Position numbers and translations under genes: made by a program. Source: Candidatus Bathyarchaeota archaeon (GTDB lineage: Archaea; Thermoproteota; Bathyarchaeia; Bathyarchaeales; Bathycorpusculaceae). Taken from it: a stretch of DNA of 64,000 bases. The notes beneath the pieces are model-generated. The model had not been told where the DNA came from, searched no databases, and saw nothing but the letters and a program-made list of their open reading frames with translations. The stretch covers positions 2,240,001-2,304,000 of the forward strand of contig OY970176.1 of NCBI GenBank assembly GCA_963707955.1. Reading direction: 5' to 3'. How positions within the stretch are numbered: position 1 is the first letter of the stretch; each line of letters begins with the position of its first letter. This document shows, in pieces, positions 14,126 to 63,983 of the stretch.

Positions 14126-14565
14126 CGCGCGCTAAATGAGGATTAGCAGAAAAGCATGGACTTTTGTAACAATTTTGCTGTAACAATCTGTCACAAACTC
14201 AGTTTTTCTAGAATTCCCAGAATTCCAATCAACACGATGGACTTTTTGAGGTGTCGTGACACTTCACAAAAAAGAGACCAGTTCTCAAAGAATTAAGCTC
14301 TTTTTTGCGTTAACACATGGAACTATTCTCAAAACTGCATTAACGTAGCGCGCTACCATGGTTTAAGAGTGCAGAACATGCCTGAAATTAGGTGCGGTCT
14401 TCTGGAAATAGAACGATTAGGATTTACAACATGTAAGCGCGCGCGCTCAAGACTATTACGAGTTTTTTTAAATTGCCGCCCGCGCTAAATGGACCTATAA
14501 TGGCGACATAAAATCTTTTATTACTAGATCGTGAATCAGCTAAGCAACTTCACAGAGGACAGTCA

Positions 14566-15492
14566 TTGTCAAAAGTCAAGAAAACAAAGGAAGACGCGCC
14601 TCGACGTTGTGACTACATCATTACCAACTACAGAAAGGCGCGTCAAAGCATTGACCAATCAAAGCTGAAGTTGAACGACACGTCTAGAGAACTCGATGAA
14701 GTGATCAACAAGTATAGCATGCTGAACAAGTTTTGCGGCCAAGTCTCAGCGATGCCAACCGGTTCTTTCTCGCAATTCCAAAAGGCGAACCTCGAAAGCC
14801 TTCTTGTTTCTGGAGCTGACAACGCGACAATGGCCTTAGGAAGGGCGAGGGAGATCGAGAAGACCATTCCACATTTTTCTGCAGTAGTTTCTTCGGGAAG
14901 CGCACTTGTTCTTGGCATTGCTGAAATCGCAAGAAACATTGCTGAAAGCTCTGAGGACACAAGGAAACTGGTCGCAGGATGGAATCTGCCCACGCCCAGG
15001 GAAAATCAGAATGCGCTCACTTCGAGGGTTCATGAGATTGAGCCACGTCTTGAGGTTAAACTCAACGGAGCTTGGCAAACCTTGTTCGACAGAACCAAAG
15101 TTGATAGGTTTCGTCAATCTTCAAGCTCGATGAGAGAGCTAATCTCTGACACTTTACAGGTTTTGGCTCCAGATTCAGGAATACAAGAGACTTCTTGGTT
15201 TTCCCAAAACGGTCCCAACAGAAAGCCGACTCAAGCAGAGCGTGCCTACTATGCCATTGTTGGAAAGAATCCAGCGGTTGAACAAAAGGATCTGAAGTCA
15301 GCAGCAGACCTAGCCAAGAATATTCGCGAATCATATGAAAAGCTCAACAAATATACCCACGAAAGAACAAGCCATCCAGAGATAAAACCTGAGGATCTCG
15401 AAAGCCAATTGGTCAGCGTTTTCAATGAGACGCAGATCTACCTTCTGGAAATCCTCAGAATGCGAGAGAAGTTTTTCAGAGACCTAATATAG
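14566..15492 (+). CDS. Hypothetical protein with C-terminal pPIWI-associating nuclease-like (HEPN-like) domain
   Basis: R(Q)...SMREL....L..LAPD..I....W.......KPT...R..Y and LNKYTH. Confidence 0.65.
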   Translation: MSKVKKTKEDAPRRCDYIITNYRKARQSIDQSKLKLNDTSRELDEVINKYSMLNKFCGQVSAMPTGSFSQFQKANLESLLVSGADNATMALGRAREIEKTIPHFSAVVSSGSALVLGIAEIARNIAESSEDTRKLVAGWNLPTPRENQNALTSRVHEIEPRLEVKLNGAWQTLFDRTKVDRFRQSSSSMRELISDTLQVLAPDSGIQETSWFSQNGPNRKPTQAERAYYAIVGKNPAVEQKDLKSAADLAKNIRESYEKLNKYTHERTSHPEIKPEDLESQLVSVFNETQIYLLEILRMREKFFRDLI

Positions 15493-15604
15493 ACTTTCGC
15501 CCGATGTCTTTGTCATTGGCTTACGTCTGTACTGATATCCCGAACCATTTCTCATAAGCATAGAAAACTTGGATGACTGCGATTGTCTTGGCTTTGTTGA
15601 AGAG

Positions 15605-16258
15605 CTATCTTAATAGAGGTTGGATCAGTGCTCTCACTTTTTCCAGCGCACTCACGACTCCACCTACGGTAGCGACGCATTTTAGCACATTCCACGCTGT
15701 TCTGAGTATACTTCGGTCTGGATTTGATTTCAATAGCTGGCTCTTAATGGTTTCAATTTCAGCCTGATAATTCAACTTCTCTTCGTCAGAGAGTCTATCG
15801 GTTTGTCGAATTTCTTCCCCAAGCAAATCGAGACTCCGGTAAAGATTACTGTACTGATTATACACGTAATTGCCATCCCCGATCACTGTAACCCCTTGAA
15901 TGTTGGTTATGTTGATACCTGTTAGCTTCGGAGTCCGTTGGAATTTGGAAGGGCCTTCAAAATGATTAATGCCTTTATCAGCTATTCTATAAGAGACGTT
16001 CTCTGCCCTTATGGTTGCGCTACCTCTAGTTATCGGGAACGTTTTCCTTTCTTCATTTACCCAACCGCTCTGAATTAGATAGTAGAGGTTACTAGCTACC
16101 TCTTGTTCGTTGAGTCCCTTTTCCTTCAATACTTGTTTTATCTCTCTCCTTCTAACGCCCGCTCCACTCACACTTCTGGATTTTTTGTACTTTGAGTACA
16201 GATATTCCAGGATAAGTTCTCTTATTTCATCGCTAGTTCTGTCTAGGGCAAGTGACAT
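15605..16258 (-). CDS. Hypothetical protein: winged-helix N-terminus, N/G-rich linker, helical C-terminus
   Basis: IL.YLY...NL.YL...GWV...YRI..KGI wHTH pattern; 217-aa clean ORF. Confidence 0.7.
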   Translation of the reverse strand: MSLALDRTSDEIRELILEYLYSKYKKSRSVSGAGVRRREIKQVLKEKGLNEQEVASNLYYLIQSGWVNEERKTFPITRGSATIRAENVSYRIADKGINHFEGPSKFQRTPKLTGINITNIQGVTVIGDGNYVYNQYSNLYRSLDLLGEEIRQTDRLSDEEKLNYQAEIETIKSQLLKSNPDRSILRTAWNVLKCVATVGGVVSALEKVRALIQPLLR

Positions 16259-16448
16259 TTACCAGATCCGTTCCTACCAATAATGCAACTTTGCGATGGG
16301 TCTAAAATAGATAGCGCATCCTAAATCTAGATGAATGATCAACATCGTAACAGCCGGGTTTGCGACCATCATCGTATAGCGCCAATTTGATTTGGTAAAA
16401 AGTAATAAAGGGATATAAAGGCAAATCTGAAAATGACCCTGAGGCGGC

Positions 16449-17534
16449 ATGAAGTACTGGGACTGGGTAGGACGATCTCACGAAGGAATGTCCAGAGATT
16501 TCCCTAATGGTGAGGAGGGCTATAGGGCTGTTTGTTTCATTCGATCCTTTTTTGAGGGAATCGGAATCGAGGAACTACCCCGAAACCATCCGCTTCACAA
16601 CAGACTGCGTATAGGCATGGCTCCGAACTACTCATGGCTAGTACAATATGCACGAAAACTGCTCACTGCCAGTCAACTGTCAGGGTTCGAGGAGATTGCA
16701 AGAAGATTTGCAGATCCTCGGGAATACTTGGCTGCAAATGCTGAGACTGAGGTTGCTCTAAAGATGTACTTAGAAGGACTGGATGTTTCTTTTTCCAGAG
16801 TGGCCTCTCAGCCTACGTGTGACCTGACTGTGAATTTGGGTAGCGAAGTGATTAGAATTGAGGTAACTTCCCTGAATCCGCCTGATGAGGAAACGCGCGT
16901 TTGGACATTGGTCGACCAAGTTAACACCTTAGGTTTCATGAAAGAAGTCGCAACAGGTGGATTCGTAAGCAGGGTTCCATCGCCCAAAATACTTGAAGAC
17001 GTACTAAAACAAGTGAATCGGGCCATTGACGAGACTAAAGATTCGCGCAAGGTTAAGAAGTTCAATTACGAGGGAGTAGCGACAATTTATCTCGCTCCAC
17101 ATGATATGGTAGACCAGATGCCCGAGGATTCCAGACACACTCTTTGCTTTGTTCAACCTCCCCGCAAGCTTATAGAGGAGCAAATAAAAAGAAAGATAGA
17201 AGAGAAAAACAAACAACTAAAACACCACAATGAACCTGGGATACTTTTTCTTTATACGCAGATGATACGCAGACAATCAGTTTCAAAGTTATTTGAACAA
17301 CCAATGGATCATGTCTCAGTTGCATTGGCCTCTTATTCAAAGCTGTTGGGATTAGTTTTGACAGTTCCACATATGGGGATTGAAGTCGCAAACGCTGTGA
17401 AGACGGAAGACCTGAAAAAAGAGCGCAGAGGGGGTAAGCTCTTTCTGGAGACTGAAGCTGGTTCCTACCAGTACGAAAGTTCGTTACTCTGGAAGAATTT
17501 GCATGCTGACCGAGGTTTTCCAGAGAACTTGTAA
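16449..17534 (+). CDS. Hypothetical protein, possible PD-(D/E)XK fold
   Basis: 361-aa ORF; E..VA...CDL.V......IEVT motif. Confidence 0.65.
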   Translation: MKYWDWVGRSHEGMSRDFPNGEEGYRAVCFIRSFFEGIGIEELPRNHPLHNRLRIGMAPNYSWLVQYARKLLTASQLSGFEEIARRFADPREYLAANAETEVALKMYLEGLDVSFSRVASQPTCDLTVNLGSEVIRIEVTSLNPPDEETRVWTLVDQVNTLGFMKEVATGGFVSRVPSPKILEDVLKQVNRAIDETKDSRKVKKFNYEGVATIYLAPHDMVDQMPEDSRHTLCFVQPPRKLIEEQIKRKIEEKNKQLKHHNEPGILFLYTQMIRRQSVSKLFEQPMDHVSVALASYSKLLGLVLTVPHMGIEVANAVKTEDLKKERRGGKLFLETEAGSYQYESSLLWKNLHADRGFPENL

Positions 17535-17765
17535 CCGCGCTAGAGAACTATTCCTCAAACCTAAGGAAACTTTCGCCTCTTCAAGAGTCTTTTGCCGGGT
17601 TGAGGACGACTAGCTGAATTCCTATCGCCAATGGTTTGTAGCGCGCGCTGGTCGTACGCTATTTTTCTTCGTGCGCGCAGTTTTTGATTCAATACTTTTC
17701 GATAGGGAACCGACTAAATCAATGTTTGAGTTTGATATTCAAAAAAGGTCCAAGAACAGCGCGCA

Positions 17766-18173
17766 TTACCTTAGGAATCTGAAGATTTTCTTATACCAAG
17801 GCGTCATTCTATCTTGGATGATTTCACAGAGTTGATTTGCAAGAATCTGCGGGTTGTTGAAGACATCTTCATTGCGGCGTCGGAGCACCTTTATGCCCCG
17901 CCGCGCTAGGTTTGAGTCTCTTTGCCTGTCGTATCTTCTCCGGTCATCATGTATGCTACCGTCAATTTCTAAGCCTAATCGCAGTGTTGGACAGTAAAAG
18001 TCAAGGATGTACCCATATGCCACGAACTGTCGGTGGAAGATATGATTTGGAAAATTAGGCATCACTTGACCTTTTATGATTTCCCACATGCGCGCCTCTG
18101 CTGGTTTCGGATTGTGTCGCATTTCATAGGCTTTTTCGAACTTGAAAGGCGCACTTCTTCGACGGCGATACAT
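17766..18173 (-). CDS. DUF559/Vsr-like endonuclease-domain protein
   Basis: AE..MW, F.RQ....YILDFYC....L.LEIDGSIH......D..RD..L...GI.VLR. Confidence 0.9.
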   Translation of the reverse strand: MYRRRRSAPFKFEKAYEMRHNPKPAEARMWEIIKGQVMPNFPNHIFHRQFVAYGYILDFYCPTLRLGLEIDGSIHDDRRRYDRQRDSNLARRGIKVLRRRNEDVFNNPQILANQLCEIIQDRMTPWYKKIFRFLR

Positions 18174-18269
18174 ACCAACCAGGCTACTATTTAATCTCTG
18201 CTAGCGCGATAAGGATTATGAAAACCCTGTAAAGATTGAAACTCAATTGAAAACCACGCAAGTTGCCTT

Positions 18270-18399
18270 TTTTGTTTGGGTTTGAGCTGGGATAAAACTT
18301 TACCCTTTTTCTCTCTCCTGCTAACTCTCTCGCTCACTCTCTCTAAAAAAACAAACAAATAAAAAACACACACACGCAGACAACAAACAAAAACACACA
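18270..18399 (+). repeat. Box + G-poor tract element, copy 1
   Basis: GGATAAAACTTTACCC at 18290-18305 followed by CT-rich then CA-rich tract; fused directly to truncated cas1. Confidence 0.85.
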
Positions 18400-19360
18400 G
18401 AAGTCAGAGACAAAAACGGGCAGACTGAACGTTATCCGCATTTTGAGAAGGAAATAGGCGAAGCTGTCCTGAAGAGCGGAAGTTACGTTTCCGTTGACGC
18501 CCTAATTGACCTTGCACTCTGGAACATAGACACCTACATTATGACTAGGAAAAACAGAGTTGTAGCAGTTTTGAAGAACCTTGAAGATGACTCTCACGTT
18601 AAAACTAGGCTCTGTCAATATGAGGCTCTCAGCAACGGTAAAGGAATTGCTATAGCTAAACAGTTTTTAATCTCCAAGATTGAAGGTCAAAACTTCGTTT
18701 TTAAGAAATATGGTCTGAAACGTCTCAATGTTGATGCTAGGCATCAAATCGGTAATATTCAATTTGAAAGTCTAGAATCAGCTAGGAAAAAGCTTGTCTT
18801 AATTGAGAGCCATAATGCTAAGCTGTATTTCAACCAGATTTTCAACTTGTTTCCTGAAAAGATTAGACCTGAAAAGAGGACAGGCTATGCGGCGTAAGAT
18901 GGCTTGAACAACGTCTTTAATTTTGCGTATTATGTTTTGAAGTGCAGAGTTCATAAGACATTGTTGAAAGCTAAGCTTGAACCATACCTAGGATTCCTTC
19001 ACTCTGTTCAAGTTGGAAAGCCTAGTCTAGTATGCGACTTTCAAGAACTTTACCGCTACTTGATAGATGACTACCTGATAGAACGGTGTCAGAAATTGCG
19101 TAAGAAGGATTTTGTGCTTGTTACAGATTTTATGATGCGTCTCAAAATGGGAAAGAGGATTCACCTATGTGAATTTGAAACTAATGATTTAGCTGAAGGT
19201 TTGAATTTGCTTTTTGAACGGCATAGTTGAGATTCCAAGAATCAGGCATGGCAGTAGGCAGACTCTTGACACGTTGATTAATGAAGAGGCTTACTTGTTT
19301 GCAAAGTTTCTGAGACATGAACGGGAAACATGGGCTCCAAGAATAGCGAGCCTAGCCTGA
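18400..19360 (+). pseudogene. cas1: Solo CRISPR-associated endonuclease Cas1 (5'-truncated, TAA at 18895-18897, frameshift near 19222)
   Basis: VRDKNG.TERYP.FE.EIGE..LKSG, R..QY, IE...A..YF, N..FNFAY..L, L.PYLGFLH, SLVCDFQE.YR..IDD; no cas2 or array nearby. Confidence 0.9.
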
Positions 19361-19514
19361 TGGAAATAAGTAGTGATATCCCGATGTGGGACTTGGCGTG
19401 CGCTAATTTGTCAGAGTCCTCTGATCTGCGCTATTCTGTAAAGTCTGCTTGCTGGGAGTAAGAATACAAAGAGTTTTATCCTCATATCTTCAACTAAGTT
19501 GGCGGGATTGATAT

Positions 19515-20174
19515 TTGGAAAAACTTCAAACAGTAAGGCCTGAACGTACTGAAGAATTCAGGAAAAGATACCATGTGCTTCTTAACATCTCTGACGAGAA
19601 AATCAATGATATACTGAAACTGGTTGATTACGGACGACTTCTGCCTGATATCTGGAAAGATAAGCGAGAGGAGGAATTCAACCGGAAGATAGCTAAGATC
19701 TGTCAATTTGATGACCAAAAAGCAAGTTTGGTCATGTCATCGATAATTGGCATTTTGCGTAATGTGAAGAAAAAAGAGTTTGTTTTGAAAAGAGAATCAG
19801 ACCTGCTGAAATTGAAGTTTAACAAAACTGAGATTGAAAGATACGGAAAATTAGTGAACACATTGAGGAAAAAAGGGGGTCACGATGAAGTCAGAGAAGT
19901 CGATCAATGGCAATCTCTGACTGCGGAAGTCTTGCCATCTTTGGCTTCTATTGAATGCTCGTTTGACATACGGTGCGGAATCAAGAAAGACCAAGTATCG
20001 ACGTATATCCCTATTGTATTGTTAAAACTCAGAGCGACGAATGAAGGAGGGAAATCCTCAGAGTTTGTATTCCAAACTGACATTGGCACCCTAAGACGTA
20101 TAACTCGCGTTTTGACCGAAACATATAGAAACTCCAGTGTACTTAGGAAATATACACTCAAACGTGAGGACTGA
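19515..20174 (+). CDS. COMMD-like protein (helical N-domain plus C-terminal COMM-like domain)
   Basis: LPSLASIECSFDIR...PIVLLKL.......SEFVFQ.....L..I...L follows the COMM-domain pattern; ~220 aa as in COMMDs. Confidence 0.6.
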   Translation: MEKLQTVRPERTEEFRKRYHVLLNISDEKINDILKLVDYGRLLPDIWKDKREEEFNRKIAKICQFDDQKASLVMSSIIGILRNVKKKEFVLKRESDLLKLKFNKTEIERYGKLVNTLRKKGGHDEVREVDQWQSLTAEVLPSLASIECSFDIRCGIKKDQVSTYIPIVLLKLRATNEGGKSSEFVFQTDIGTLRRITRVLTETYRNSSVLRKYTLKRED

Positions 20175-20182
20175 AACTGACA

Positions 20183-20656
20183 ATGCGTCTCAGTCAACGT
20201 GTAGTACTTGAAGAACCGCAACCTGTCGCAGAGCATCAGAGATGTTTTCTAAGTGGAGATAGATACATCATGGATGCAGATCTCTTGGATAATTCCAAGC
20301 GTCGCGCGAGACTAAGACGCGTGCGTGAAGTATGGAAGCCAAATCATTGGTTCCCTGATGAAAGAATATACTTGGTGCATTCAGTCGCTCCAAACTTCTA
20401 TCGACGTGGCGATACGACATGGTCTATTGTTTTAGATGAAGAAAGCGAGACTGACTTAACTGAAACAATTCAAAAGAAGCTGAGAATCAGAAAGACAGAG
20501 GCAGCAGCAATAAAGGATAAACTTTACGAGGAAATTGACCAAATAGCTCAGGCTCGGAACGTTGAACGGTTTTCCTCAAACGAAAAAGACCAGCTAGTAT
20601 TAGCAATAATCAAGACCGCTGACAGTTTGTTGAAGAAGACACTTGATACAAAGTAG
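20183..20656 (+). CDS. Hypothetical protein
   Basis: 157-aa ORF, 8 bp from upstream and 14 bp from downstream gene. Confidence 0.7.
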   Translation: MRLSQRVVLEEPQPVAEHQRCFLSGDRYIMDADLLDNSKRRARLRRVREVWKPNHWFPDERIYLVHSVAPNFYRRGDTTWSIVLDEESETDLTETIQKKLRIRKTEAAAIKDKLYEEIDQIAQARNVERFSSNEKDQLVLAIIKTADSLLKKTLDTK

Positions 20657-20670
20657 TCGGAGGCTGGCAC

Positions 20671-21753
20671 TTGTCATCCTCGGAAGACAAGCAGTCATCC
20701 TTTGCCTATCTTCTCTTGTCATTCCTCGAAGGAAAATTGTTAGAGAAGAATATTGAGATTCCCAAATCTTCTCGTGACATTCTTAATGTAGCAGTGGATG
20801 AGGCTGTCAACCAATATGTCACTATGCATGGCAAAGATATGACGATTGAACCTTTGTCACTTTTTGAGACGGTTTTCATGCTAGGTTTGGAATTCCGCCG
20901 TAAAAATCCTCCAATCATTCTTGTTCGCACCTATCAAGTTGGTTTTGAATCAAAAAAGAAGTCTCCTTATTCAATTGTAGTAGTGCAACCACGTGTTCCT
21001 TCTCAGGATCAGTTTAGAGAAAAGGTTACCAATAATGGAAAACTTTGTATCATTAAAGAAGAAGCGGCTGAAGACATAATGCAGCAACTTTCAGAGATTG
21101 CTGAGAAGCTTGAAGAAAGAGTTGATTTTGTCTGTTTTCCTGAACTATCATTCTTTGATAAGAAAGAAACCTACGATGTTTTGAGCAAAATTGGAAAGGA
21201 AAAAGATTGTTTCATAATAGCAGGATCTTTTCACGATGAAAAGACAGAATCTAATATCTCTGTGATTTTTTCACCCCAAGGAAACTGGTTCAATCAGAGC
21301 AAAATCTTCAGATCCAAAAACGAAGGTATCAATGAGAAACCAATAGAATACTTGAACGAGTTTGATTTCCTTGAAGGAAGATTTTGTGTGTTGATTTGTA
21401 TCGATTCAGAAAGAGAGGATATCAGACAGATACTCAAAGAGAGACTGAAAGACCGCAAGTGCCCTGTGCTAGTCTTCAACCCATCACACACCGAACACCC
21501 AAAAAGGGCGACGGAGCTGCTAGCAAACAATCTCATGGTGCTGATTTCTGCGGCAATAGTTTTCTGTAATACTAACCAGAAAGGGGGTTCAACGGTACTT
21601 GTTCCTTTTGTTGAACTCAAAGATAGAAAATTCCGACTCTTCGAACTACCTCCTTCCGCCAAGACTGAGATTGGAAACGCCCAAGTTGATGTTAACCTCC
21701 TTATGGAAAATAGATTGTCAAAACAAAATGGTGTGGTTTCCATGACGAGATAA
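20671..21753 (+). CDS. Carbon-nitrogen hydrolase (nitrilase-fold) protein with N-terminal extension
   Basis: Catalytic triad motifs FVCFPEL, Q.K, VLICID; IIAGS; F.NT...GGS. Confidence 0.82.
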   Translation: MSSSEDKQSSFAYLLLSFLEGKLLEKNIEIPKSSRDILNVAVDEAVNQYVTMHGKDMTIEPLSLFETVFMLGLEFRRKNPPIILVRTYQVGFESKKKSPYSIVVVQPRVPSQDQFREKVTNNGKLCIIKEEAAEDIMQQLSEIAEKLEERVDFVCFPELSFFDKKETYDVLSKIGKEKDCFIIAGSFHDEKTESNISVIFSPQGNWFNQSKIFRSKNEGINEKPIEYLNEFDFLEGRFCVLICIDSEREDIRQILKERLKDRKCPVLVFNPSHTEHPKRATELLANNLMVLISAAIVFCNTNQKGGSTVLVPFVELKDRKFRLFELPPSAKTEIGNAQVDVNLLMENRLSKQNGVVSMTR

Positions 21754-21811
21754 GACTGCGAGCCGTCAAGGAAAGGATTTGCGCCCGCGCAAAATCACAG
21801 ACTGAACAGTG

Positions 21812-21940
21812 TTATGTGTTTTTCGTTTTATGCGTGTGTGTGTTTTTTATTTGTTTGTTTTTTTAGAGAGAGAGTGAGTGAGAGAGTTAGTAGGAGAGAG
21901 AGAAAAGGACAAAACTTTACCCCCCCACACACACAACAAC
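21812..21940 (-). repeat. Box + G-poor tract element, copy 2 (inverted, near-identical tract to copy 1)
   Basis: Reverse complement of ~21832-21908 matches ~18304-18378 with few differences; box GGACAAAACTTTACCC at 21907-21922. Confidence 0.88.
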
Positions 21941-21984
21941 TTTGGTTCGTGGCTTTTTGGGGTGCCTCGCTGGTCGCTCGGCAC

Positions 21985-22371
21985 CTTTTTCTAAGCAGCA
22001 GGATGACCAGCTATCCTCTTTGAGGCAAAAAACAGACGCTGGTACGCTGATAAAAGAGGTGGGGCATGAGGCACAGCAAATAACCCTACCCACGCTCAAT
22101 AGGAGAATAATATACCCGTTAGAGGCTCTAAAGGGTATATTTCGAGACGTTTTCAGCTCAATTTGATGGCGAATAGAGAATACTCCAAAGCTACTGGAAA
22201 ATCATTAAGAAAACAGCGGTTTACGACAAGGCTCTTGGCAAATTTACAGACGAAGACTCACGCAAAGAAGGTTTCGAAGACATAGCCGAATGCAAGCAGT
22301 TCTGGAAGGAAAACATTGACGCGTGGAATCCCGACAGAATCGTCTGGATTCATGAACATGAATTAGTCTAA
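21985..22371 (+). pseudogene. Degraded ASCH-domain gene
   Basis: C-terminal VYDKALGKFTDEDSRKEGFEDIAECKQFWKENIDAWNPDRIVWIHEHELV-stop; 5' part broken. Confidence 0.6.
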
Positions 22372-22397
22372 GCACACGCCGATTACACTTCATACGC

Positions 22398-23249
22398 TTA
22401 TTCCGTGACCTCGGGTGTATCCGCGAGCACTTTCGAGAAGGAGTTTGCTATCGAATTGACTACCTCTTGGTTAGTGGAAACAATCCCTGCTTCCCAAGAA
22501 ACACCAGCCGATGAATCTGCAAAGAAATTCATTGAAGATATAATAGCTATTGCACGGTCAACTACGATTAATTTCGCGTGTACTTTGGCATCATAAAATA
22601 ATGAAATGCCTTCCTGTTTGAGTTTTGAGTGATAATCCTGCCTTTTCTTAAGATATTCAGGATGCTTGTCCTCTGGAGGGCGAGTAATAATTTGAACGTT
22701 GATTCCGTTTTTACTCGCTTCTATCAACGTATTGCTGAGGTCACAATCTTGAATGTAAGGATTTGCTGTGAGAACATCGAATTTGGCGTGAGAGATTAAT
22801 TCTTTTGAAAAATCATCTAGATGTCTTCGCTCGAGGAAGAAATGTTCATGCTCAATGGAAAAATCAAGATTCCTAATTTCTTTCCATTGCGCTATCCATT
22901 TGACGAGTTCGGTCCTCGGATTATACAACTCCGAATAAATCTGAAAACGTTCGTCAGATATGTAATACTTGCTCTCAGCGTTAGTGTTGCTCTCGATTTT
23001 ATGAATGTCTTCTGAGGAGATAAGTTCGAAAAGTGCCCTGTTCAATGATTTCTTGCCCAAACCAGTTACTTCTTGGATTTCTCTCCAAGTCAAGGGTCTG
23101 CCATTTTGGACAATCGCTCTGATGACTAAACCTTGCCATGACCGAGGTCTCCACTTTGGTCTGGCTGTCGCTTCGCTCTCCAAAGTTGGCTTCTCGGATT
23201 GTTTAATCATTCTGCGGAGCAAGAATAACTCCTGTAACTCTATCATCAT
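22398..23249 (-). CDS. HTH + phospholipase D-family (HKD) nuclease-like protein
   Basis: VHAKLIVVD...AIISSMNF......EAG; N-terminal HTH (LTWREIQEVTGL). Confidence 0.85.
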   Translation of the reverse strand: MMIELQELFLLRRMIKQSEKPTLESEATARPKWRPRSWQGLVIRAIVQNGRPLTWREIQEVTGLGKKSLNRALFELISSEDIHKIESNTNAESKYYISDERFQIYSELYNPRTELVKWIAQWKEIRNLDFSIEHEHFFLERRHLDDFSKELISHAKFDVLTANPYIQDCDLSNTLIEASKNGINVQIITRPPEDKHPEYLKKRQDYHSKLKQEGISLFYDAKVHAKLIVVDRAIAIISSMNFFADSSAGVSWEAGIVSTNQEVVNSIANSFSKVLADTPEVTE

Positions 23250-23411
23250 ACGATTTCTTATAACAATAATGCAGTCATAATCTATAGCACAACTAACGGA
23301 TGCATCGCTTCAAAAATACCTTGGCACCTCTATCATTTTCTTGATCATAAAATGCCCTTCTTTTTGGTATGCCTTGAACATAAGTAAGTAGGCTCTCAAT
23401 GAGAATTAGCA

Positions 23412-23452
23412 ATGTGGTGGTTGTTGGGGTAAAGTTTTACCCAAACCAAACC
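23412..23452 (+). repeat. Box element, copy 3 (short)
   Basis: tgtggtggttgttg GGGTAAAGTTTTACCC aaaccaaacc; box at 23427-23442. Confidence 0.75.
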
Positions 23453-23689
23453 TGACGACGATGTGCTACGTGGAAACAGAATGGCTTCTGAAAGGCAGTA
23501 TACACGATTCAGAGCATAGTGGTTGATCTCTGCAAAAGAGGCTATTACGGGAAATCAGATCATAATAGGGTAGGGATATAGGTAGTATCGGAATCGAGTA
23601 TACGGCCCCCTTTGCGCAGAAGGATTGCGAGAGATGTGTTTGTTCTTTCTGTTTCATAATAGAACAGATTGTTTTGATTGTTATCGAGA

Positions 23690-24775: not shown

Positions 24776-24848
24776 GTGACTAGATTGCTACGGAGACAAG
24801 AAAACGCTTTCGGTTTGTGTTTCTTGGCAGAAATAGTATCTATTTGCA

Positions 24849-30693: not shown

Positions 30694-30720
30694 CGTACAT
30701 ACGGACCGCATAAATCGGCG

Positions 30721-53583: not shown

Positions 53584-53723
53584 TTGGGGTAAAGTTTTAT
53601 CTTTCTCTCTCTCAATTTCTTACGCACACGACGACGCTCTAATTCTAACGCGCTAACTCTCCCCTACTCACTCACTCTCTCTACACACACGCACACACAC
53701 AGAGACAGACAAAGCACGCGCTA
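53581..53723 (+). repeat. Box + G-poor tract element, copy 8
   Basis: GGGTAAAGTTTTATCT 53587-53602; CT then CA tract; ends GCACGCGCTA on the stop of the second NosD gene. Confidence 0.85.
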
Positions 53724-55487
53724 GGAACGGTTATGCTTTTTCTTGTGGATTGCTATTGCTGACAGTGTCGCTAACATGGACATTGCTAATATGAGAAAAT
53801 CAGGAAACTCGGGCATTATTGTAATCTGTTCTGCTGAGTGGCCGTAGGTGAAGTACAGGCAGGTGTTACTGCTGTTTGAGACGGGCAAGAGGCTGTATTG
53901 AACCTGCGTCCCATTAACGAACACGCTGAGAGTGCCGTTTAACATCGCTGTTGGTATGCACACGTTGCAGAAGCCCGTCGTACCGTTCACGCCTGAAACG
54001 TTGAAGAGTATAGCGGTTCCGTTGAACTGAAAATCAGAAACCGTGGAGTTGCTCACAACCTGAACATCAACGCCTTGTACAACATTGAAGTCTGAGAATC
54101 CTCCCATCAGAGGGTAAAAATCCGTGTTATTGGCGTCAATAACGTATGGTGTGTCGCCTATGCCGTCGCTTCCAGTCACATTCTGATATTGCCCGCTGTA
54201 CAGGTCCGTACGGTTGTAGTCGCTCCAATAGTTGCCGCCTGAAGGATAGTCGTTGTCCCAAGTGTTGCCGATGGATGTGCTGTCGACTAAAGTCTGGGCA
54301 CCGTTCCCAATGAAATTGTTATGGTATATCGTGTTGTTTGAGGAAGAATTGTCGAGCCAAATGCCACTACCATAACTATTTGCTGTGACGTTGTTGCCAG
54401 ATAGAACATTGCCAGAAGAATTGTCGAGCCAAATGCCAGCATAGTAGTTTGCTGTGACGTTGTTGCCAGACAGAATATCGCCAGGAGAAGAGTAGAGATA
54501 AATGCCATACCAGCCGTTAGCTGTGAGGTTGTTGCCGATGATTTTTGAATCAGTCGTGTTTGCCAGCGTGAGTCCCCCATAATTTCTCGTGAGAGCCAAG
54601 CCTTGCACTGTCACGTTCTTGCAGTTGACGAGGCACACGTACCCAACGCCCTCGGGATAAGTCTGGGGGCTTATCACGATGTTCGACTTGTTCATCAGGT
54701 AGTACACGGGCTTACCCTCCACGAGGTTTGAAGTGTCAACATGATTCACAAAATCGCTCAAAACACTGCCAGAGGCGCTGCCAGAGACGCCAAAGTTGTA
54801 GGTGTTATCTGCTATCACGTTGTCAGACAGAACATTGCCAGAAGAAGCGCGGAGATAAATGCCATAGATGTTTGCTGTGGCGGTGTTGCCTGACACGGTA
54901 TTGTTATCAGAAGAAGAAAAGAGCTCAATACCATCAAAGACGTTTGCTGTACTGTTGTTGCCTGACACGGTATTGTTATCAGAAGAAGAGCCGAGGTTAA
55001 TTCCAAAGCCGTTTGCTCTGACGTTGTTTCCGCTTATGCTGCTGCTGTTAGAATATTCGAGATCGATGCCACCCCCGCTGTTTGCTGTGACGTTGTTGCC
55101 GCTAACAGTGTTGTTTGAAGAAGAGTAGAGATAGATCCCTTCTTGGAAGTTTTCGATGTTGGCGTTTTCGATCGTCACGTTGCTTATGTCCGTCAGGCTT
55201 AGACCATATCCGCTTAGGTTTCCTTGTACAGTGTAGCCGTTTCCGTCGATTACGGTGTTGTTTCTTTCGACGACGATTCCGTTGTAAGCTGGGTAGCTGA
55301 CGTTGCCAGTTAGCGTGTACGTGACGTTGTTAACGCTTGAAATAGGTGCGGAAGACGGAGAAACGCTTCCGTCACTGTTAATATAAACGGTTTCATTTGG
55401 TGCATGGACAAGCCCAATGTTAAACGCCAAGGCGAACGTGCCTGCAAGAAGCAACGACAAAATCATCAAAGAAACAATTCTCCTCAT
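53721..55487 (-). CDS. Secreted NosD/beta-helix repeat surface protein with PEF-CTERM-like anchor (paralogue of 45738)
   Basis: Signal peptide, PbH1 repeats, YPSGGNYWSDY, C-terminus nearly identical to the 45738 gene. Confidence 0.92.
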   Translation of the reverse strand: MRRIVSLMILSLLLAGTFALAFNIGLVHAPNETVYINSDGSVSPSSAPISSVNNVTYTLTGNVSYPAYNGIVVERNNTVIDGNGYTVQGNLSGYGLSLTDISNVTIENANIENFQEGIYLYSSSNNTVSGNNVTANSGGGIDLEYSNSSSISGNNVRANGFGINLGSSSDNNTVSGNNSTANVFDGIELFSSSDNNTVSGNTATANIYGIYLRASSGNVLSDNVIADNTYNFGVSGSASGSVLSDFVNHVDTSNLVEGKPVYYLMNKSNIVISPQTYPEGVGYVCLVNCKNVTVQGLALTRNYGGLTLANTTDSKIIGNNLTANGWYGIYLYSSPGDILSGNNVTANYYAGIWLDNSSGNVLSGNNVTANSYGSGIWLDNSSSNNTIYHNNFIGNGAQTLVDSTSIGNTWDNDYPSGGNYWSDYNRTDLYSGQYQNVTGSDGIGDTPYVIDANNTDFYPLMGGFSDFNVVQGVDVQVVSNSTVSDFQFNGTAILFNVSGVNGTTGFCNVCIPTAMLNGTLSVFVNGTQVQYSLLPVSNSSNTCLYFTYGHSAEQITIMPEFPDFLILAMSMLATLSAIAIHKKKHNRS

Positions 55488-55577
55488 TCTACTCTCCCTG
55501 CCCACTACAAACATAGCCCTAATTAACTTTTAAGTTTATCTAAGCAACAACCAGAAGATTCCTAGACGGCTCGCTCA

Positions 55578-55707
55578 TTAGGCTAGGCTCGCTATTCTTG
55601 GAATCCATGTTTCTCGTTCATTCCTCAGAAACTTCGCAAGCAAATAAGCTTCTTCATTAATCAACGTGTCAAGGGTCTATTTACTGCCATGTCTGATTCT
55701 TGGAATC
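55578..55707 (-). pseudogene. cas1: cas1 3'-end fragment, copy 3
   Basis: Reverse complement reads IPRIRHGSK*TLDTLINEEAYLLAKFLRNERETWIPRIASLA-stop, matching 19231-19360. Confidence 0.92.
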
Positions 55708-56811: not shown

Positions 56812-57111
56812 CTCCCAACACCAAGAAGACTACAGACTAGTTCACGTCTATAAGAACATAGCACAAGTGCGGTAAGAACAAGGCCACAAAAAGATGTTGC
56901 CTCTCTGCCCTTCCTCAGCGCGCGCCGCACGCTATTCATTGCCTTACATAAGGAAGCTCTGCATATATGCATATCTTTGGTAAGAAACATAAATGCTAAT
57001 GTACTAAACAAAATTGTGGTTGAAATCACACAGAGGACATCAAAATCGAAGAAGTTTTATAACATAGCAACTGAAAGTTAAATGTGCCTCGTACGTAAGG
57101 AGGTGAAAAAA

Positions 57112-57432: not shown

Positions 57433-57563
57433 CGCTACATCGCGTTGAGAGGTCGCAATTGTGTCATAATGGCTGCCAATTCTGCCTCTAAGAAGAGCGA
57501 GCGCTATTGTGCAGCGCGCGCTATCGTAACATGTAAATCTGTCTCCTCACAGCAAATCCTTAA

Positions 57564-58463
57564 TTGTGTATGCGACCAAGAGCGTCGTTGCCGAACTGGG
57601 AGAGGCGCAAGGGATTGATTAAGCGAGTTAGTATCGTTCTTGCGAATTATTGTCCGCACTGTGTACCGTTTTCTCTGCGTAATGCTAACAAAATGTCCAG
57701 AGACCTTGGGGTTCCGCTTCTTACTCTTGACATAGAGATCCCCGAGCAGCTTGAGGCGGCTGACAGGCTCGTCGAAGAACACGGCGATTGGTCGGAGGAT
57801 TATCTTATCCCTCAAGTCTTTGTTGAACACATGGACGGGAGAGTTAATCACGTATTAACTGGTTTTTCAGAGGCAGTTTCGGTGACAGAACGTTCTTGGA
57901 AAGCGCTGTTTTCGAGTAGTTACTATCAAAGTCTCGTACATGGAGAACCGGCTATCTCGTTGCCTCACTCATCATCCCGTCGTAAGTCGTTGAAGGAGTT
58001 TGTGGAGGCATACCTAACGTTCGATGGACAATGTTACAGGCACTGCGATAGCCCTTCCTCCTTCGTAGATCTGCGATCCGACTCGGATAATGTCATCGGA
58101 GCATACGTCTGCCCCGGCGGATACGTGTCTAGGGTTGTCTACTTCAGTGTTTACCCAGATGTCAAGCAATTAAGAAGCTTCCTTATCTCCCAAGTCGGTA
58201 AGGAAATTGTTAACGATCGCGATATCCGTCCAGCCACTAGGCACGGGTGGGAATTGGGAGGTGATGCTTTGGCTGAGATTGGTGAAGTGAGCCCCACCGG
58301 TGTCATAAAGGAGATCTATTGGACAGTCTATGCCAAAACCGAAGACGAGAGAAGACGTGGAGTTTTTATCTGCTCACATCCTAGGAAAGGAATGGGATGT
58401 AACAGACTATTCGTTCAAGACAAGAAGTCAAGAAACAGATTGTGCCCAAAGTGTAAACAGTGA
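57564..58463 (+). CDS. Thioredoxin-like (CPHC) protein with Cys-rich C-terminal region (start probably ~57615)
   Basis: YCPHCVP, DYLIPQVF; C-terminal C..GC...CPKC. Confidence 0.7.
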   Translation: MCMRPRASLPNWERRKGLIKRVSIVLANYCPHCVPFSLRNANKMSRDLGVPLLTLDIEIPEQLEAADRLVEEHGDWSEDYLIPQVFVEHMDGRVNHVLTGFSEAVSVTERSWKALFSSSYYQSLVHGEPAISLPHSSSRRKSLKEFVEAYLTFDGQCYRHCDSPSSFVDLRSDSDNVIGAYVCPGGYVSRVVYFSVYPDVKQLRSFLISQVGKEIVNDRDIRPATRHGWELGGDALAEIGEVSPTGVIKEIYWTVYAKTEDERRRGVFICSHPRKGMGCNRLFVQDKKSRNRLCPKCKQ

Positions 58464-58640
58464 AGCGCGCGCTAAGGCTTTCTCTAATTTGGTGACTAGA
58501 GATAATGGCTTTTGAAAAAGCCGTTTTCCCTATTCCACACCCAACAGGTTTCTAAGCGAAATCCACACTTTAAGGCTTGCCCAGTAACCGCGAGTTAGAA
58601 GATTCTTCTCAATCACCAGCGCGCGCTCCAAGATGATGAC

Positions 58641-59522: not shown

Positions 59523-59662
59523 CCGCGTGTCTGTCTGCCTGTCTATTTGTGTGATGTATGTGTGTGATATCTCTGTGTGAGATATGTAAGTAGCTAAGAG
59601 AAAGAAAGAAGAAGAGAGAGAAGGTGTGTGTGTGTTTGGGGGTAAAGTTTAATCCCACACAC
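59523..59662 (-). repeat. Box + G-poor tract element, copy 9
   Basis: Box GGGTAAAGTTTAATCC 59640-59655 inside a GTGTG../..CACAC hairpin; tract ends at CACGCGG. Confidence 0.82.
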
Positions 59663-59737: not shown

Positions 59738-60166
59738 ATGAGAATAATCTATGGATTCGTTTTGTTGGCTATCATCTTCGTAGCTTGTTTCGGCTTTCAA
59801 TCATACCTAATAATGCATCTACAGTCACAGTTAGACAATGTTCAGCATCTGAATGACGAGAGCATTAAACCTAAGGTTGTTGTCTTGTCGTATACATGGG
59901 CACTATCTTCATATGACCCATTAGAGAGCATGGTGAGTGCTAACTGCACGTTGCTAAATCTGAGTCCAACCACAGCGGTGAATGTGGAAATAGACATTAC
60001 TGTTTCAGTACAGAATACGACCATAACTTGGGTACGTACCTTAGCTGATTTTGACCCTTGGCATACGGAAAACGTCTATGATATAGTAGTTATCTATAAC
60101 AGTAGTTTAGGAGTACCATTGAACGTTTGGCTTACACCTAGATGGAACGGTATGTATGGATATTAG
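59738..60166 (+). CDS. Membrane-anchored hypothetical protein (Ig-like extracellular part)
   Basis: N-terminal TM, beta-rich remainder; stop TAG is part of TAGCGCGCGCTA. Confidence 0.7.
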   Translation: MRIIYGFVLLAIIFVACFGFQSYLIMHLQSQLDNVQHLNDESIKPKVVVLSYTWALSSYDPLESMVSANCTLLNLSPTTAVNVEIDITVSVQNTTITWVRTLADFDPWHTENVYDIVVIYNSSLGVPLNVWLTPRWNGMYGY

Positions 60167-60243
60167 CGCGCGCTAAGGCTGAATCACGCGTAAAGATTAT
60201 CTGGCCGATCCTAAAACTTTACGGGAGTAAGTGTTGAAGTCAC

Positions 60244-60603
60244 ATGGATGTTAGCGGCGTTGCCGACGAGAAGTACATCTATTTAACAACTAGAGGTAGG
60301 AAGACTGGAAATCCACACACGGTTGAATTGTGGTTTGCGATAGCTGGAAAGAAAATCTATCTTAGCCATGAAGGAGCGTACACTGACTGGATGAAGAACA
60401 TTCTTGAGGATGGTCGAGTCGAGTTTAAGGTCGGAAAGATCCAGTTTGAGGGCATTGCTCGAATTGCTGAAGGTGGGGAGGTTTTTGAATTGGGAAAACA
60501 TGTTCTCTACCTTAAGTATTATGGCAAGGCAGACGAAGACACGATTAACGATTGGTTCTCAGAGTCAACAATAATCGAGATCTCAATGATCGGTAGAGTA
60601 TAA
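60244..60603 (+). CDS. Deazaflavin (F420)-dependent nitroreductase-family protein
   Basis: LTTRGRKTG.PH.VE.WF, DW.KN. Confidence 0.85.
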   Translation: MDVSGVADEKYIYLTTRGRKTGNPHTVELWFAIAGKKIYLSHEGAYTDWMKNILEDGRVEFKVGKIQFEGIARIAEGGEVFELGKHVLYLKYYGKADEDTINDWFSESTIIEISMIGRV

Positions 60604-61226
60604 AGCGCCTATGGTAAGAGGTTGATGAATTGATGAAATGGAAGTCCGTGAACTAAACCTGACGGCGCGCTGAAGAATGAACTGAACCCATTTAGGTCTA
60701 AGTCCGGGCGAGCGCGCTGGCTTTCTCTCTAGGCGAATTACACAATACGCTAAGGACACGTTGGATTCGACCATTGAAACTAGACTTTTGTTGAGTTATC
60801 TGTGATGCCTAAAACGTGTTTTGGCAAATGGGACTGCAAAGAGTTTGGAGACACACTAGTAAGATTGTTCTACCAAGTAGCTAGTGGTTCTTGACAGCAT
60901 TACTAAGTGGAAAATAGCGCGCGTTAATCCACGAAGGCGCTCTCAGCAACCTCGTCAACCAAGCACTGGGAAACACACAGCGTGATACCTATCCTTCCGT
61001 GATCCATAAGCACTATAAAAACAAGCTTGATCTAGACTAAAAATGATCGCGCGCGCAAGAAAACTGCTCAAATCTGGCGAACCCGGTGCAAGAAAAAAAG
61101 GGAATGAGGTTGGGAATGGTTCTAGCTGTATTGGAGGTTTTGTATGCGGCTCTCGTACGAGGTTGTTCCCCAGTAGAACGTGGATGAGGTTATCTTAAGT
61201 TGGCGGTTGTAGACAGCGCGCGCGCT

Positions 61227-62037: not shown

Positions 62038-62388
62038 CTCGAAAACGCGCGCACAGTGCCATAACTTAGCCTACCCTTGGTGCCCGCGCATTGCATCAAA
62101 CCAGGACTGTTTGCACACGCTAATCATAAATATCAATAGTGTGACATATGACAAGTGATGTTACAATGCCTCGGAACCTTGCTTTGGCAATCTTCGTGGT
62201 TTTTTGATGTTAGGCATTGTCTTAAGTCTAAACGTTTCAACTGCGAAGGCAACGTGGTGACTAGATCTCTGTTCTGTAAAAAAGGGGAGATGCGAGTGAT
62301 ATCCACTGTGGTGGATTCACGTTCCACTTCCGAGACTTCCAACGTACGTCCCTCTGTCTCTGAAAACAGGCTTTGACTGGTATCTTAG

Positions 62389-62607
62389 TTACGAAGGTTT
62401 GACTATTTCCACGTAGTAGCGCCCATCTTTAGTTCTTTTTATTCCACGAATCTTGGCCAGATCGTGGTTCAGAATCCACTCTTCGAGACCTAACTCTTCA
62501 GGCCTTTTAGCAGTTTCTTCTGACACAGCGCCCAGTTCTTTCATCTTTCTCCTGGCCAAATCTGCGCGGATACCTAATCCAACCAAGAGTCCTGCCATTG
62601 CCAACAC
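62389..62607 (-). CDS. Small membrane-anchored hypothetical protein
   Basis: TM then GAVS.ETAK.PEELGL...T.DGRYY. Confidence 0.6.
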   Translation of the reverse strand: MLAMAGLLVGLGIRADLARRKMKELGAVSEETAKRPEELGLEEWILNHDLAKIRGIKRTKDGRYYVEIVKPS

Positions 62608-62623
62608 CTCAGAGAGAGTTGCT

Positions 62624-62987
62624 TTAAGGCGATATAAACCATGGGATGCAAACGGTTGTCGTTATGTCTCCTATCTCATAAGGGCCATAATATTTGTAGC
62701 ATGTTGCCTCCAAATGACCATCAAAGACAACTTCTGTTAAGCCGCACGTCTTAGCGCCAACGGGATCCGATCCCAGGAAGATTAGATCGCTTGCGCTACC
62801 ACCTGTATTGTTATTTGCAATGTAGAAATTTAACTGGCTCTGATATAGGCCGTACTTTTCGCCATAATAGTCGCCGAGAAGGTTGTTCGACGTAAGCTGC
62901 ACATGATGTGTCTGTGCAATTGTTTCGTTGTACCCTGATACTGGCTGTCCTTGCGTATAATCAAAAGCAGTGGCTACTCCCTTCATT
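62624..62987 (-). pseudogene. Startless fragment of a secreted-type protein
   Basis: Protein-like frame begins at the (GC)5 run at 62988-62997. Confidence 0.45.
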
Positions 62988-63983
62988 CGCGCGCGCGATC
63001 CATAGTGCAGGACCGTTTGCACCGTTGCCCCCATTTAAGAAAGTATCGACGCCTTGTGGGTCGTTTTCGAAGACTTGGCCATTGTCAGCCCATATTCCAA
63101 CGGTGTACCAAGAAACGCTTTCATTGTTGACTTTGTCAAAGGTTATCGCGACACCCCATGCTGGATAAATCGCAAAATCGTCTCCTCTGAACATGTCAAT
63201 GTCCCGGAGCCAAGTGAGTGACGCATTCACAGAGACGACCCGCTGTCCGTGTTGTTGCGCGTAGTTTTGGGCAATGGAATTTGCGATGACCTCTGCTTCT
63301 TCCTCTGAGACAGTAATGTTTGTACTTGCAACGTAATAGAGGTCCATGTTATCGGAGATCGAGGTTACTAGGCCGTTCTTTGACACGCATATTCCCAGAA
63401 ATTCCTCAAAATTCGTGTTGTTTATTCTTTTCGCCCATTGAAGGTCGGTGTATCTCCTGTAGTCTTCGGGCGTTGAGCAGTTTGCAACGCATGACGCATT
63501 CAGTACAGTGTCGCCATTTTCGGCAGAGAATTTAGAATTGTTAAGCGCAGCGGGGATCATTTCGGCGAATGTGTCGCCATAGGTCAAGTTCAGGGTTTCT
63601 CCGTATTGTCTGACAGTTCTGCTTGCCACTGCTAAACAGTTGCTAAAAGTTTCATTTCCAGAGAACTGGGTAGTAGGTGAGGTTAAGTCAAACATGGTGA
63701 GTTTTCCATCCTCGAGGAGCATCGAAGCCACGAACGTGTCGTTGTTGACTGTGACCTCCAATTGCATGGGAGTCTCAACGTGTTCAGAACCAGTCATTGT
63801 GCTACCTGTCGTGGAGTTGAAGGAGACGATTTGGAAATTGCTGAATCCGATGACCTTCGTCAGAAAATTCGTGGCGAACTGCCCTGTAACGTCATACGCG
63901 TGCCCATGCACAATCGTAGTCGGCAGGGTTGCCGAGAATACGAGAAAGATGCCTAAGAAAGCCATGATACACTTCTTGCTCAT
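62961..63983 (-). CDS. Secreted hypothetical protein, probably 3'-truncated
   Basis: Signal peptide; YPAW.V...FD, V.IWAD.GQV (PepSY-like); no C-terminal anchor, ends just past the (GC)5 run. Confidence 0.75.
   Translation of the reverse strand: MSKKCIMAFLGIFLVFSATLPTTIVHGHAYDVTGQFATNFLTKVIGFSNFQIVSFNSTTGSTMTGSEHVETPMQLEVTVNNDTFVASMLLEDGKLTMFDLTSPTTQFSGNETFSNCLAVASRTVRQYGETLNLTYGDTFAEMIPAALNNSKFSAENGDTVLNASCVANCSTPEDYRRYTDLQWAKRINNTNFEEFLGICVSKNGLVTSISDNMDLYYVASTNITVSEEEAEVIANSIAQNYAQQHGQRVVSVNASLTWLRDIDMFRGDDFAIYPAWGVAITFDKVNNESVSWYTVGIWADNGQVFENDPQGVDTFLNGGNGANGPALWIARANEGSSHCF

Follow-up and report, generated by a model that had tools for sequence, protein, structure and literature searches.

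What joins the genes of an archaeal island whose neighbours are functionally unrelated, stand in both orientations and differ between sister species? The question is raised by the window, a stretch of 64,000 nucleotides (G000:C1:2,240,001-2,304,000) of the Bathyarchaeia genome G000, a single contig of 2,346,764 bp. Most of a hypervariable island lies within it, and a short self-complementary run of three to five GC dinucleotides, written (GC)3-5 and called the motif below, recurs between the island genes. Our reading, which we hold tentatively, is that the units of the island are joined at this palindrome, which would be a genome-wide mark of non-homologous joining in the lineage; we favour a junction scar that doubles as a reusable joining site. 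An earlier note on this DNA had taken the layout for a gene-cassette capture system, worked by a solo Cas1 or by a tyrosine integrase.

The island was delimited against two relatives, G001 and G007, which alone were aligned to G000 (~90-92% identity). Pairwise identities of 92.5 for G000-G001, 89.5 for G000-G007 and 90.1 for G001-G007 suggest that G007 is likely the outgroup to the other two. Contigs G007:C3 and G001:C5 are collinear with G000 from ~2.128 Mb to window position 14131 (G007) or 14010 (G001), and collinearity returns at G000 2,315,602 (G007) or 2,314,838 (G001). Between these conserved flanks the island of G000 measures ~61 kb, that of G007 ~48 kb and that of G001 ~19 kb. The window holds most of the G000 version (14131-64000), which extends ~11.6 kb beyond the window end, to G000 2,315,602. 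Few island units are common to G000 and its relatives, and some of these are inverted or relocated. The left boundary itself falls on the motif: homology to G007 stops within a CGCGCGC at 14126-14132 and G001 carries (GC)5 14 nt from the same boundary, so that the motif stands in the same place in G000 and G001, and in degenerate form in G007, while the DNA beyond it differs. The same motif sites recur as boundaries in different genomes.

The motif is strongly over-represented. In the window, GCGCGCGC has 26 matches against 0.46 expected, and TAGCGCGCGCTA has 10 matches at up to one mismatch against 0.09 expected; only two copies of this 12-mer are exact, and the real unit is (GC)3-5 with A favoured before it and T after it. 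A logo of 374 sites gave a conserved (GC)4 preceded by A (56%) and followed by T (56%) and then T/A, with nothing beyond. Genome-wide, GCGCGCGC occurs 464 times against 28.4 expected from a first-order Markov model, a 16-fold excess; (GC)5 reaches 27 times its expectation, and the other alternating or GC-rich 8-mers tested stay at ~1x. The mean per 64-kb bin is 12.5 copies and two bins hold 32-33, the window being only ~2x the mean. The earlier note had described a short palindrome joining the genes of the window; its enrichment there stands, with (GC)≥4 in 16 of 42 island gaps, and it is not local to the window.

The position of the motif is equally biased. Gene calls were crude longest open reading frame (ORF) calls covering 81% of G000, and 355 of 419 merged (GC)≥4 sites (85%) lie outside them, 64 inside. 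Sites occur in all intergenic orientations, 90 of them between divergent genes. Compared with random intergenic positions they are enriched within 2 nt of a stop codon (23 sites, 8.4 expected) and depleted within 10 nt of a start (5 sites, 25.8 expected). Gaps with (GC)≥4 make up 38% in the island, 8% in the adjacent syntenic core (7/90) and 292 of 1,834 genome-wide. Among 169 G000 sites in aligned blocks, 94 recur intact in the relative and 74 carry substitutions there, and five pure motif insertions were found in one genome or the other. Degenerate copies, seen at window 14100-14500, 18190-18215 and 19395-19430 and at many junctions, are mostly GCGCGTGC, GCACGC or CGCGTG when judged by eye, that is, CpG to TpG/CpA changes; this pattern could be a hint of cytosine methylation in the motif.

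The link between the motif and gene turnover comes from gains and losses between the relatives. Contigs of G001 and G007 totalling 1.13 Mb were aligned to G000, and 735 kb aligned. An indel was defined as two adjacent collinear blocks separated by at most 40 bp in one genome (the empty allele) and at least 100 bp in the other (the filled allele), the motif was scored within 12 nt of the joint, and positions shifted by 100-400 nt served as controls. Before cleaning, 22 of 64 junctions and 11 of 512 controls had the motif. Removal of two artefactual pairs with large negative gaps left 62 clean indels, and (GC)≥3 was present at the empty-allele junction in 21 of these and in 1 of 496 shifted controls (Fisher p ~6e-21). 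The proportion near random intergenic positions is 3.8%. With (GC)≥4 the counts are 15/62 and 0/496. At least three loci (one with the motif, two without it) are counted twice, since G001 and G007 both span them. Sorted by the genome with the empty allele, the motif is found in 12/24 cases in G000, 4/12 in G001 and 5/26 in G007, and the missing segments range from 184 to 4,089 bp. For a further congener, G009, only 38 kb were alignable to G000, at 85% identity, yielding no clean indels. In addition, among island units shared with congeners at ≥88% identity, 8 of 17 ends lie within 15 nt of the motif, compared with 3.6% for random positions. The earlier note had named three observations that would speak against its proposal: presence/absence boundaries off the motif, a motif equally common in syntenic core, and such islands in genomes without the Cas1 and integrase. 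As the boundaries do map to the motif and the motif is rarer in the core, the proposal withstood the first two.

The 21 motif junctions are of two kinds. In the first (11/21), (GC)≥2 is missing from the 12 nt around each end of the filled allele, and the empty allele has a pure (GC)3-5 in place of the segment. At G000 2,223,456, both G007 and G001 encode an intact 300-aa membrane protein, of which ~97 codons remain in G000, followed by TAGCGCGCGC, which provides the stop. Because G000 is closer to G001 than either is to G007, this is a derived deletion with a new palindrome. The same polarity logic applies to G000 2,228,398, where (GC)5 replaces ~291-296 bp common to G001 and G007. The palindrome can therefore be new at a deletion joint. 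In the second kind (10/21), GC repeats stand at one end of the insert (6) or at both (4). An example of inserts running from motif to motif is the 1.1-kb segment at G000 997,229-998,358, where G007 has one motif and G001 none. A different type of joint was also observed: G007:C3 at ~137,700 is without the FMN-reductase-like gene that is present at G001:C5 97,572-98,398, and two GTCGAC repeats flank its joint, which has no GC filler, as in an ordinary microhomology deletion. It directly adjoins a motif-type deletion in G000.

Several units of the island are bounded by the motif. Unit A, a 299-aa gene of unknown family on the plus strand (57528-58474), is found in four contexts: the window, G000 999,121-1,000,052, G007:C3 and G001:C3. 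On either side of every copy (GC)3-4 stands 0-14 nt away, the DNA farther out is unrelated, and the right end shows three different stopping points before the motif. The unit A protein has no Pfam match, and its best protein-atlas score was 0.79, under the tool's lead level. Unit B (30684-31807, minus strand) is a split ApbA/PanE gene, 94% identical in G007 and inverted there, whose left end is exactly GCGCGCGC in both genomes. Unit C (40196-40739, minus strand), a SnoaL-like gene shared with G001 and G007, is bounded by (GC)3 and (GC)4. A peptidase C1 unit (41205-42659, minus strand; 93% with G009) has its right end 1 nt from CGCGCGCGC, and an F420H2-quinone-reductase-like unit (60177-60608, plus strand; shared with G007 and G009) has its left end 4 nt from GCGCGCGC.

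Beyond these three genomes the motif is patchy over the class and is not specific to the genus. All ten congeners carry AGCGCGCGCT in 7-92 copies (reversed control 0-4), and 20 genomes of other genera in the same order carry 0-1. A class-wide sample, in which a genome counted as motif-rich with 10 or more copies and 5x the control or more, added 25 motif-rich genomes out of 300, which with G000 gives 26 against 275 others (301 genomes). The motif-rich genomes fall in families f1, f26 (8/10), f27, f29, f35 (5/5) and f36.

Based on these results, we propose the following route. At a break, or when a fragment is captured, the ends would acquire or copy a few GC repeats, either by microhomology-primed synthesis from the hundreds of existing copies or through addition by some polymerase. 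Since (GC)n is self-pairing, annealing is possible between any two ends of this type, which would then be sealed. Each event would leave a (GC)n scar, and old scars may be reused as fragile sites and as portable microhomology. If scars are both left and reused, the motif would accumulate where gene turnover is tolerated, in intergenic DNA and in islands. Cas1, a tyrosine integrase and Ku would all be unnecessary for this route. It is possible, though somewhat unlikely, that several Bathyarchaeia lineages share an undescribed way of joining in which (GC)3-5 is written at the joint and reused, with a putative polymerase, nuclease or mobile agent that has the patchy distribution of the motif itself.

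Candidate enzymes were sought across the genomes. G000 has a complete end-joining operon at G000:C1:957178-960233 (L092 7178-10233), comprising a LigD primase-polymerase, Ku and a ligase-3'-phosphoesterase fusion. Ku was found in G000 and 7 of 10 congeners but in only 1 of 20 other genomes among the first 31. This genus-level link vanished in the class-wide sample, where Ku occurs in 7 of 26 motif-rich genomes (G000 included) and in 82 of 275 others, 89 of 301 in total, and Ku/LigD end joining was rejected as the cause. Y1/RAYT transposases (PF01797), with no match in G000 or in G089 and matches in G105, G111 and G244, do not track the motif and were likewise rejected. Tyrosine integrases (PF00589) have nine matches in G000 at E≤0.01, none of them in the window; the integrase-like stub that the earlier note had placed there, and with it a tyrosine integrase as catalyst, was not borne out.

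The alternative that carries most weight takes the palindromes for relics of transposon ends. GC-tipped elements would have been lost by slippage between their identical palindromic tips or by imprecise excision that takes adjacent DNA with it, leaving (GC)n, and segments between two tips would be mobile as composites. Elements of this form exist in G000: a family of MITEs (miniature inverted-repeat transposable elements) of ~170-200 bp with ends (T)AGCGCGC-WW-GCKTGTTCCTAAATTC (for example G000 123074-123271; 119 end-like matches) and a 1-kb IS5-like element (G000 389,088-390,136) with the same ends and with DUF772 and DDE_Tnp_1 in two frames. Several inserts of the second junction kind end in MITE-like sequence beside the motif, and a patchy class-wide spread is what a mobile element would be expected to show. 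Imprecise excision of P and Ac/Ds elements can also leave terminal stubs and flanking deletions. However, although G000 has the terminal inverted repeats (TIRs) and DDE transposase of the IS5 family, motif abundance and element abundance do not go together. The TIR pattern has 69 matches in G000, 93 in G001, 28 in G003 and 26 in G007, but 0 in G004, 0 in G008 and 1 in G009, three genomes with 39, 56 and 82 motif copies. No repeat family stands alongside the 151 motif sites found in 398 kb of G009, of the 838 flanks of (GC)≥4 sites in G000 only 11 resemble the TIR, and TAGC/ATGC is not enriched after the motif; the motif is not accounted for by extant repeats. MITE flanks are (GC)3, whereas junction fillers are mostly (GC)4-5, and the window has no convincing TIR match, only one weak TIR-like match at 33583. 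Of the 10 congeners, 5 have DUF772, as do 3 of the 20 motif-less genomes of other genera, and the IS5-like transposase was rejected as agent for want of a link to the motif. Target duplications were sought at 21 polymorphic MITE places; two MITEs were conserved in the relatives, one place was messy and none was clean. Taken together, we consider an origin from transposon ends unlikely, though still a serious contender. If it is nevertheless correct, the locus shows how strongly one element family can shape the structure of an island.

A gene-cassette exchange system, with (GC)n as a minimal attachment site for a putative site-specific enzyme other than Cas1, would suit the units that are motif-bounded on both sides in several contexts and the left island boundary that the three genomes share, and the symmetry of the flanks (A...T / TA...TA) would agree with a dimeric protein. 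Such exchange cannot create a motif where the ancestral allele has none, as at 11 of the 21 junctions, and the unit ends are not fixed, lying 0-14 nt from the motif with a stopping point that varies among the copies of unit A; for both reasons a cassette system is less likely. In addition, 6-10 bp is far below known recombinase site lengths, and neither a tyrosine recombinase match in the island nor a Y1 transposase in G000 is available, which together make exchange of this type quite improbable. Integration at a fixed repeat fails in the same way at the new-palindrome junctions with a motif-less filled allele, and this applies to the proposal of the earlier note, in which a solo casposase-like Cas1 integrates gene-sized DNA at the palindrome with a box and tract as leader. 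The Cas1 fragments and at least 11 copies of the cas1 3' end scattered through islands fit that proposal, as do the inverted repeats of ~120 nt around the Cas1 segment of the window and an intact solo Cas1 between inverted boxes in G001. Its distribution contradicts it. The four Cas1 matches in G000 are all partial or stop-bearing; among the ten congeners Cas1 is intact in G001 and G003 only, in fragments in four and without a match in four. G004, G007, G008 and G009 have fragments only, yet carry 39-92 motif copies. Over the genus, G000 included, fragments or no match were counted in 8 of 11 genomes, all with the motif, which for Cas1 is the third of the contrary observations named in the earlier note. 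Conversely, seven genomes of other genera have an intact Cas1 (>240 bits) and 0-1 motif copies. Neither Cas2, a CRISPR array nor PolB was among the matches. Cas1 as driver was rejected on the broken G000 copies and the failure to track the motif, and we give it next to no probability. Finally, the palindrome might be a selected signal, such as a target of protein binding or of methylation or a signal for 3' ends between genes, with only a secondary link to junctions. The bias to non-coding DNA and stop codons, the depletion at starts, the 94 of 169 sites conserved between species at ~90% identity and the symmetric flanks all agree with this. Point mutation and selection, however, cannot put an exact (GC)4-5 at a fresh deletion joint, and sites in all intergenic orientations, 90 of them between divergent genes, and a motif commoner in dispensable island than in core also disagree, so a selected signal is very doubtful.

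Several findings also weigh against a scar left by non-homologous joining. As 41 of the 62 clean indels have no motif, other joining routes exist. Polarity is known at just 2-3 loci, and at the others the allele called 'empty' may be the ancestral one. A scar does not predict that A is favoured before the motif and T after it. No responsible enzyme emerged among the candidates tested; Ku does not co-occur with the motif, and reverse transcriptase was found in 0 of 31 genomes. GCGCGC stands at both ends of the IS5-like element and ~35 MITE copies, which would fit a transposon origin. The joints of a recent 1.5-kb insertion at window 11983-13520, missing from G007 and G001, are without the GC motif. 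Contigs of four metagenome runs (X1-X4) gave no motif-bounded variant, and being short they tell neither way; for window 44-64 kb, their joints and loose ends fit the second unit A copy and beta-helix gene repeats.

The insertion at 11983-13520 has perfect 25-bp inverted ends and an 8-bp duplication (CATGAGAG), and encodes a NYN + OST-HTH protein with no recognisable transposase.

The individual motif sites of the island, located by a scan of the gaps between genes, start with (GC)5 at 14437-14446. (GC)4 lies between convergent genes at 17641-17648 and as a site at 28605-28613, inside an exact TAGCGCGCGCTA at 30525-30532, over the TAG stop of a PNP gene at 33542-33549, and again inside an exact TAGCGCGCGCTA at 60166-60173, where it overlaps a TAG stop; these five were also recovered by motif search. 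Further (GC)4 runs stand at 40778-40785, 44194-44201, 45624-45631, 52369-52376 and 58619-58626, with (GC)4 sites at 37513-37521, 40954-40962 and 61048-61056. Another (GC)4, at 56918-56925, was found from unit ends as well and is 26 nt from the end of the OYE unit. (GC)5 occurs at 61216-61225, and the other phase is represented by (CG)4 at 35263-35270 and (CG)5 at 62988-62997.

The genes of the island form two parts. It holds a decaying defence island together with unrelated accessory genes. The defence part (14566-30474, by Pfam and PADLOC) is mostly a run of lone components: a pPIWI-associated nuclease, a DUF559/Vsr-like protein, Cas1 in two pieces and a PLD/DrmC-like protein, and also SIR2, HD, QatC-like, YdjM and HNH genes. 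PADLOC matches at 14.5-30.5 kb (Aga_Nuclease, Aga_SIR2, DrmC-like, QatC and PDC-M01B) place this run among defence islands. From 30.5 to 64 kb, Pfam identifies unrelated accessory genes in both orientations: the split ApbA/PanE, PNP, a metallo-beta-lactamase fold, isochorismatase, aminotransferase IV, a methyltransferase and SnoaL; peptidase C1, an amino-acid permease, an aminoglycoside N-acetyltransferase-like protein and two NosD/beta-helix proteins; radical SAM, AAT, OYE, CMD, NUDIX and several without a Pfam match. The picture of unrelated and broken genes in both orientations over 14-64 kb drawn by the earlier note is confirmed, Cas1 and ApbA/PanE each being in two pieces. The ketopantoate reductase (ApbA/PanE) gene is split into 30721-31026 and 31048-31668. 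The match at 44647-45426 is to the aminoglycoside 3-N-acetyltransferase family (PF02522, E 4e-51), in an environmental archaeon. A 579-nt inverted repeat, 90% complementary (48596-49174 and 53683-54261), spans the 3' ends of the two convergent NosD/beta-helix genes, the larger of which has 66-69-nt tandem repeats at 47651-48560. An Rfam scan of the window found no families, and a tRNA search found no genes.

The Cas1 of the window is a pseudogene on the plus strand (18379-19230), with an in-frame TAA and its 3' end in another frame, covering profile positions 11-270 of 283 with one stop. It lies in a segment (18276-21936) bracketed by inverted box-plus-tract repeats of ~90-120 nt, with the box and a CT/CA-rich tract at 18276-18397 on the plus strand (box at 18290) and at 21815-21936 on the minus strand (box at 21907), both from a repeat search. 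The three other ORFs of the segment have no polymerase match, which with the broken Cas1 does not make a casposon. As the earlier note had said, no CRISPR array, cas2 or integron integrase was found among the window repeats or the Pfam matches of 50 ORFs, and a CRISPR adaptation module is likewise lacking. In G001, the intact solo Cas1 of 347 aa (L065, on G001:C28, 9903-10946) has no Cas2 or array; inverted boxes at 6471 and 15738 enclose it, and a ThiF/E2-like gene is close by. These two arrangements suggest a decayed Cas1-bearing mobile element, separate from the palindrome.

A repeat made of the last ~90-115 nt of the intact G001 cas1 plus ~20-30 nt past its stop is dispersed over the genome, the rest of cas1 being found at only 2-4 places. 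The earlier note had recognised the repeat and counted three copies; the window has four, at 19268-19380 (plus) and 32430-32528 (minus) by sequence search, and at 44306-44415 (plus) and 55576-55707 (minus) by both repeat and sequence search. Further G000 copies, which bring the count to at least 11, are at 77185, 80711, 206293, 393369, 863024, 2026895 and 2034521.

The box, GGATAAAACTTTACCC, is a quasi-palindrome of 16 bp, in many cases with G-rich and C-rich arms around it. The box elements reported earlier are indeed conserved, although at up to two mismatches the window has eight and not nine (37 in G000). Besides the two arms above, 16-mers were found by box search at 23427-23442 (minus), at 31776-31791 (plus; right end of the ApbA unit), between convergent genes at 53587-53602 (minus) and at 59640-59655 (minus). 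Two more came from repeat and box searches, at 30562-30577 (plus; 30 nt after GCGCGCGC at 30525) and at 45513-45528 (plus), where the box and a CT tract lie upstream of a gene for a 1132-aa beta-helix protein. The box ends unit B in both G000 and G007. At up to one mismatch it is present in all ten congeners (1-38 copies), even those barely alignable to G000, and in 0-6 copies elsewhere. It is often clustered, also in islands, for example with ~8 copies within ~7.4 kb of G009:C8. As a candidate promoter it was mapped in G000, where 10 copies lie in divergent gaps, 13 in tandem gaps, 8 in convergent gaps and 6 in crude ORFs; with the box in every intergenic orientation, nothing supports the role of leader assigned to it earlier.

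Single-gene gain and loss outside known mobile elements is poorly understood in archaea. About one third of the gene-sized differences that separate sister species bear the motif, which in some cases arises at the joint itself. This gives a footprint from which gene turnover can be read in an archaeal class that is uncultured and globally abundant, and a handle for finding the activity. If a reusable scar is the right reading, a 6-10 bp palindrome would be both scar and universal minimal attachment site for the gain, loss and shuffling of gene-sized DNA. If the joining chemistry is new, illegitimate recombination would have a further mode next to integrons, transposons and Ku-dependent end joining. 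The listings and abstract openings of a full-text literature search gave no description of such an intergenic palindrome in Bathyarchaeia or of GCGCGCGC as a genome repeat in archaea; those for 'highly iterated palindrome' and archaea concern bacteria, mostly cyanobacteria, and those for MITEs or transposases in Bathyarchaeia contain nothing on this class.

Among known systems, HIP1 (GCGATCGC) of cyanobacteria resembles the motif as an 8-nt palindrome that is over-represented many-fold in some lineages only and whose origin is not agreed. HIP1 occurs in coding and non-coding DNA, whereas the motif is 85% outside ORFs and stands at indel junctions; we know of no description that links HIP1 to such junctions. 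Repetitive extragenic palindromic (REP) sequences and their RAYT transposases are similar in that hundreds of lineage-specific palindromic repeats lie between genes, often between gene ends. In contrast to the 6-10 nt motif in a genome without Y1 transposase, REPs are imperfect hairpins of 20-40 nt with a conserved head and a cognate Y1 transposase. Integron arrays share with the island unrelated single genes at a recurring palindromic site and a content that varies among relatives. An integron has IntI beside the array, attC sites that are structured imperfect palindromes of tens of bases, and cassettes mostly co-oriented behind one promoter. Unlike this, the window has neither IntI nor an attC-sized site, its genes stand in both orientations, and the motif is genome-wide and can arise de novo at deletions.

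The closest parallels are found among scars and deletion endpoints. Footprints of Tc1/mariner, P and Ac/Ds elements are short palindromic remnants at losses, sometimes with a neighbouring deletion, but the motif is abundant in element-less genomes and its flanks show no further element sequence. Microhomology-mediated end joining and Ku/LigD seal deletions with a few extra bases, as at the motif joints, and the operon is present in G000; nevertheless, Ku shows no co-occurrence with the motif over the class, and no end-joining pathway is known to us in which the filler is always one and the same self-complementary sequence. GC clusters of yeast mitochondria are also short GC-rich intergenic palindromes that coincide with deletion endpoints. 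They measure 30-60 bp, lie in an AT-rich organelle genome and exist before the deletions that use them, whereas the motif described here measures 6-10 bp and may be absent from the undeleted allele.

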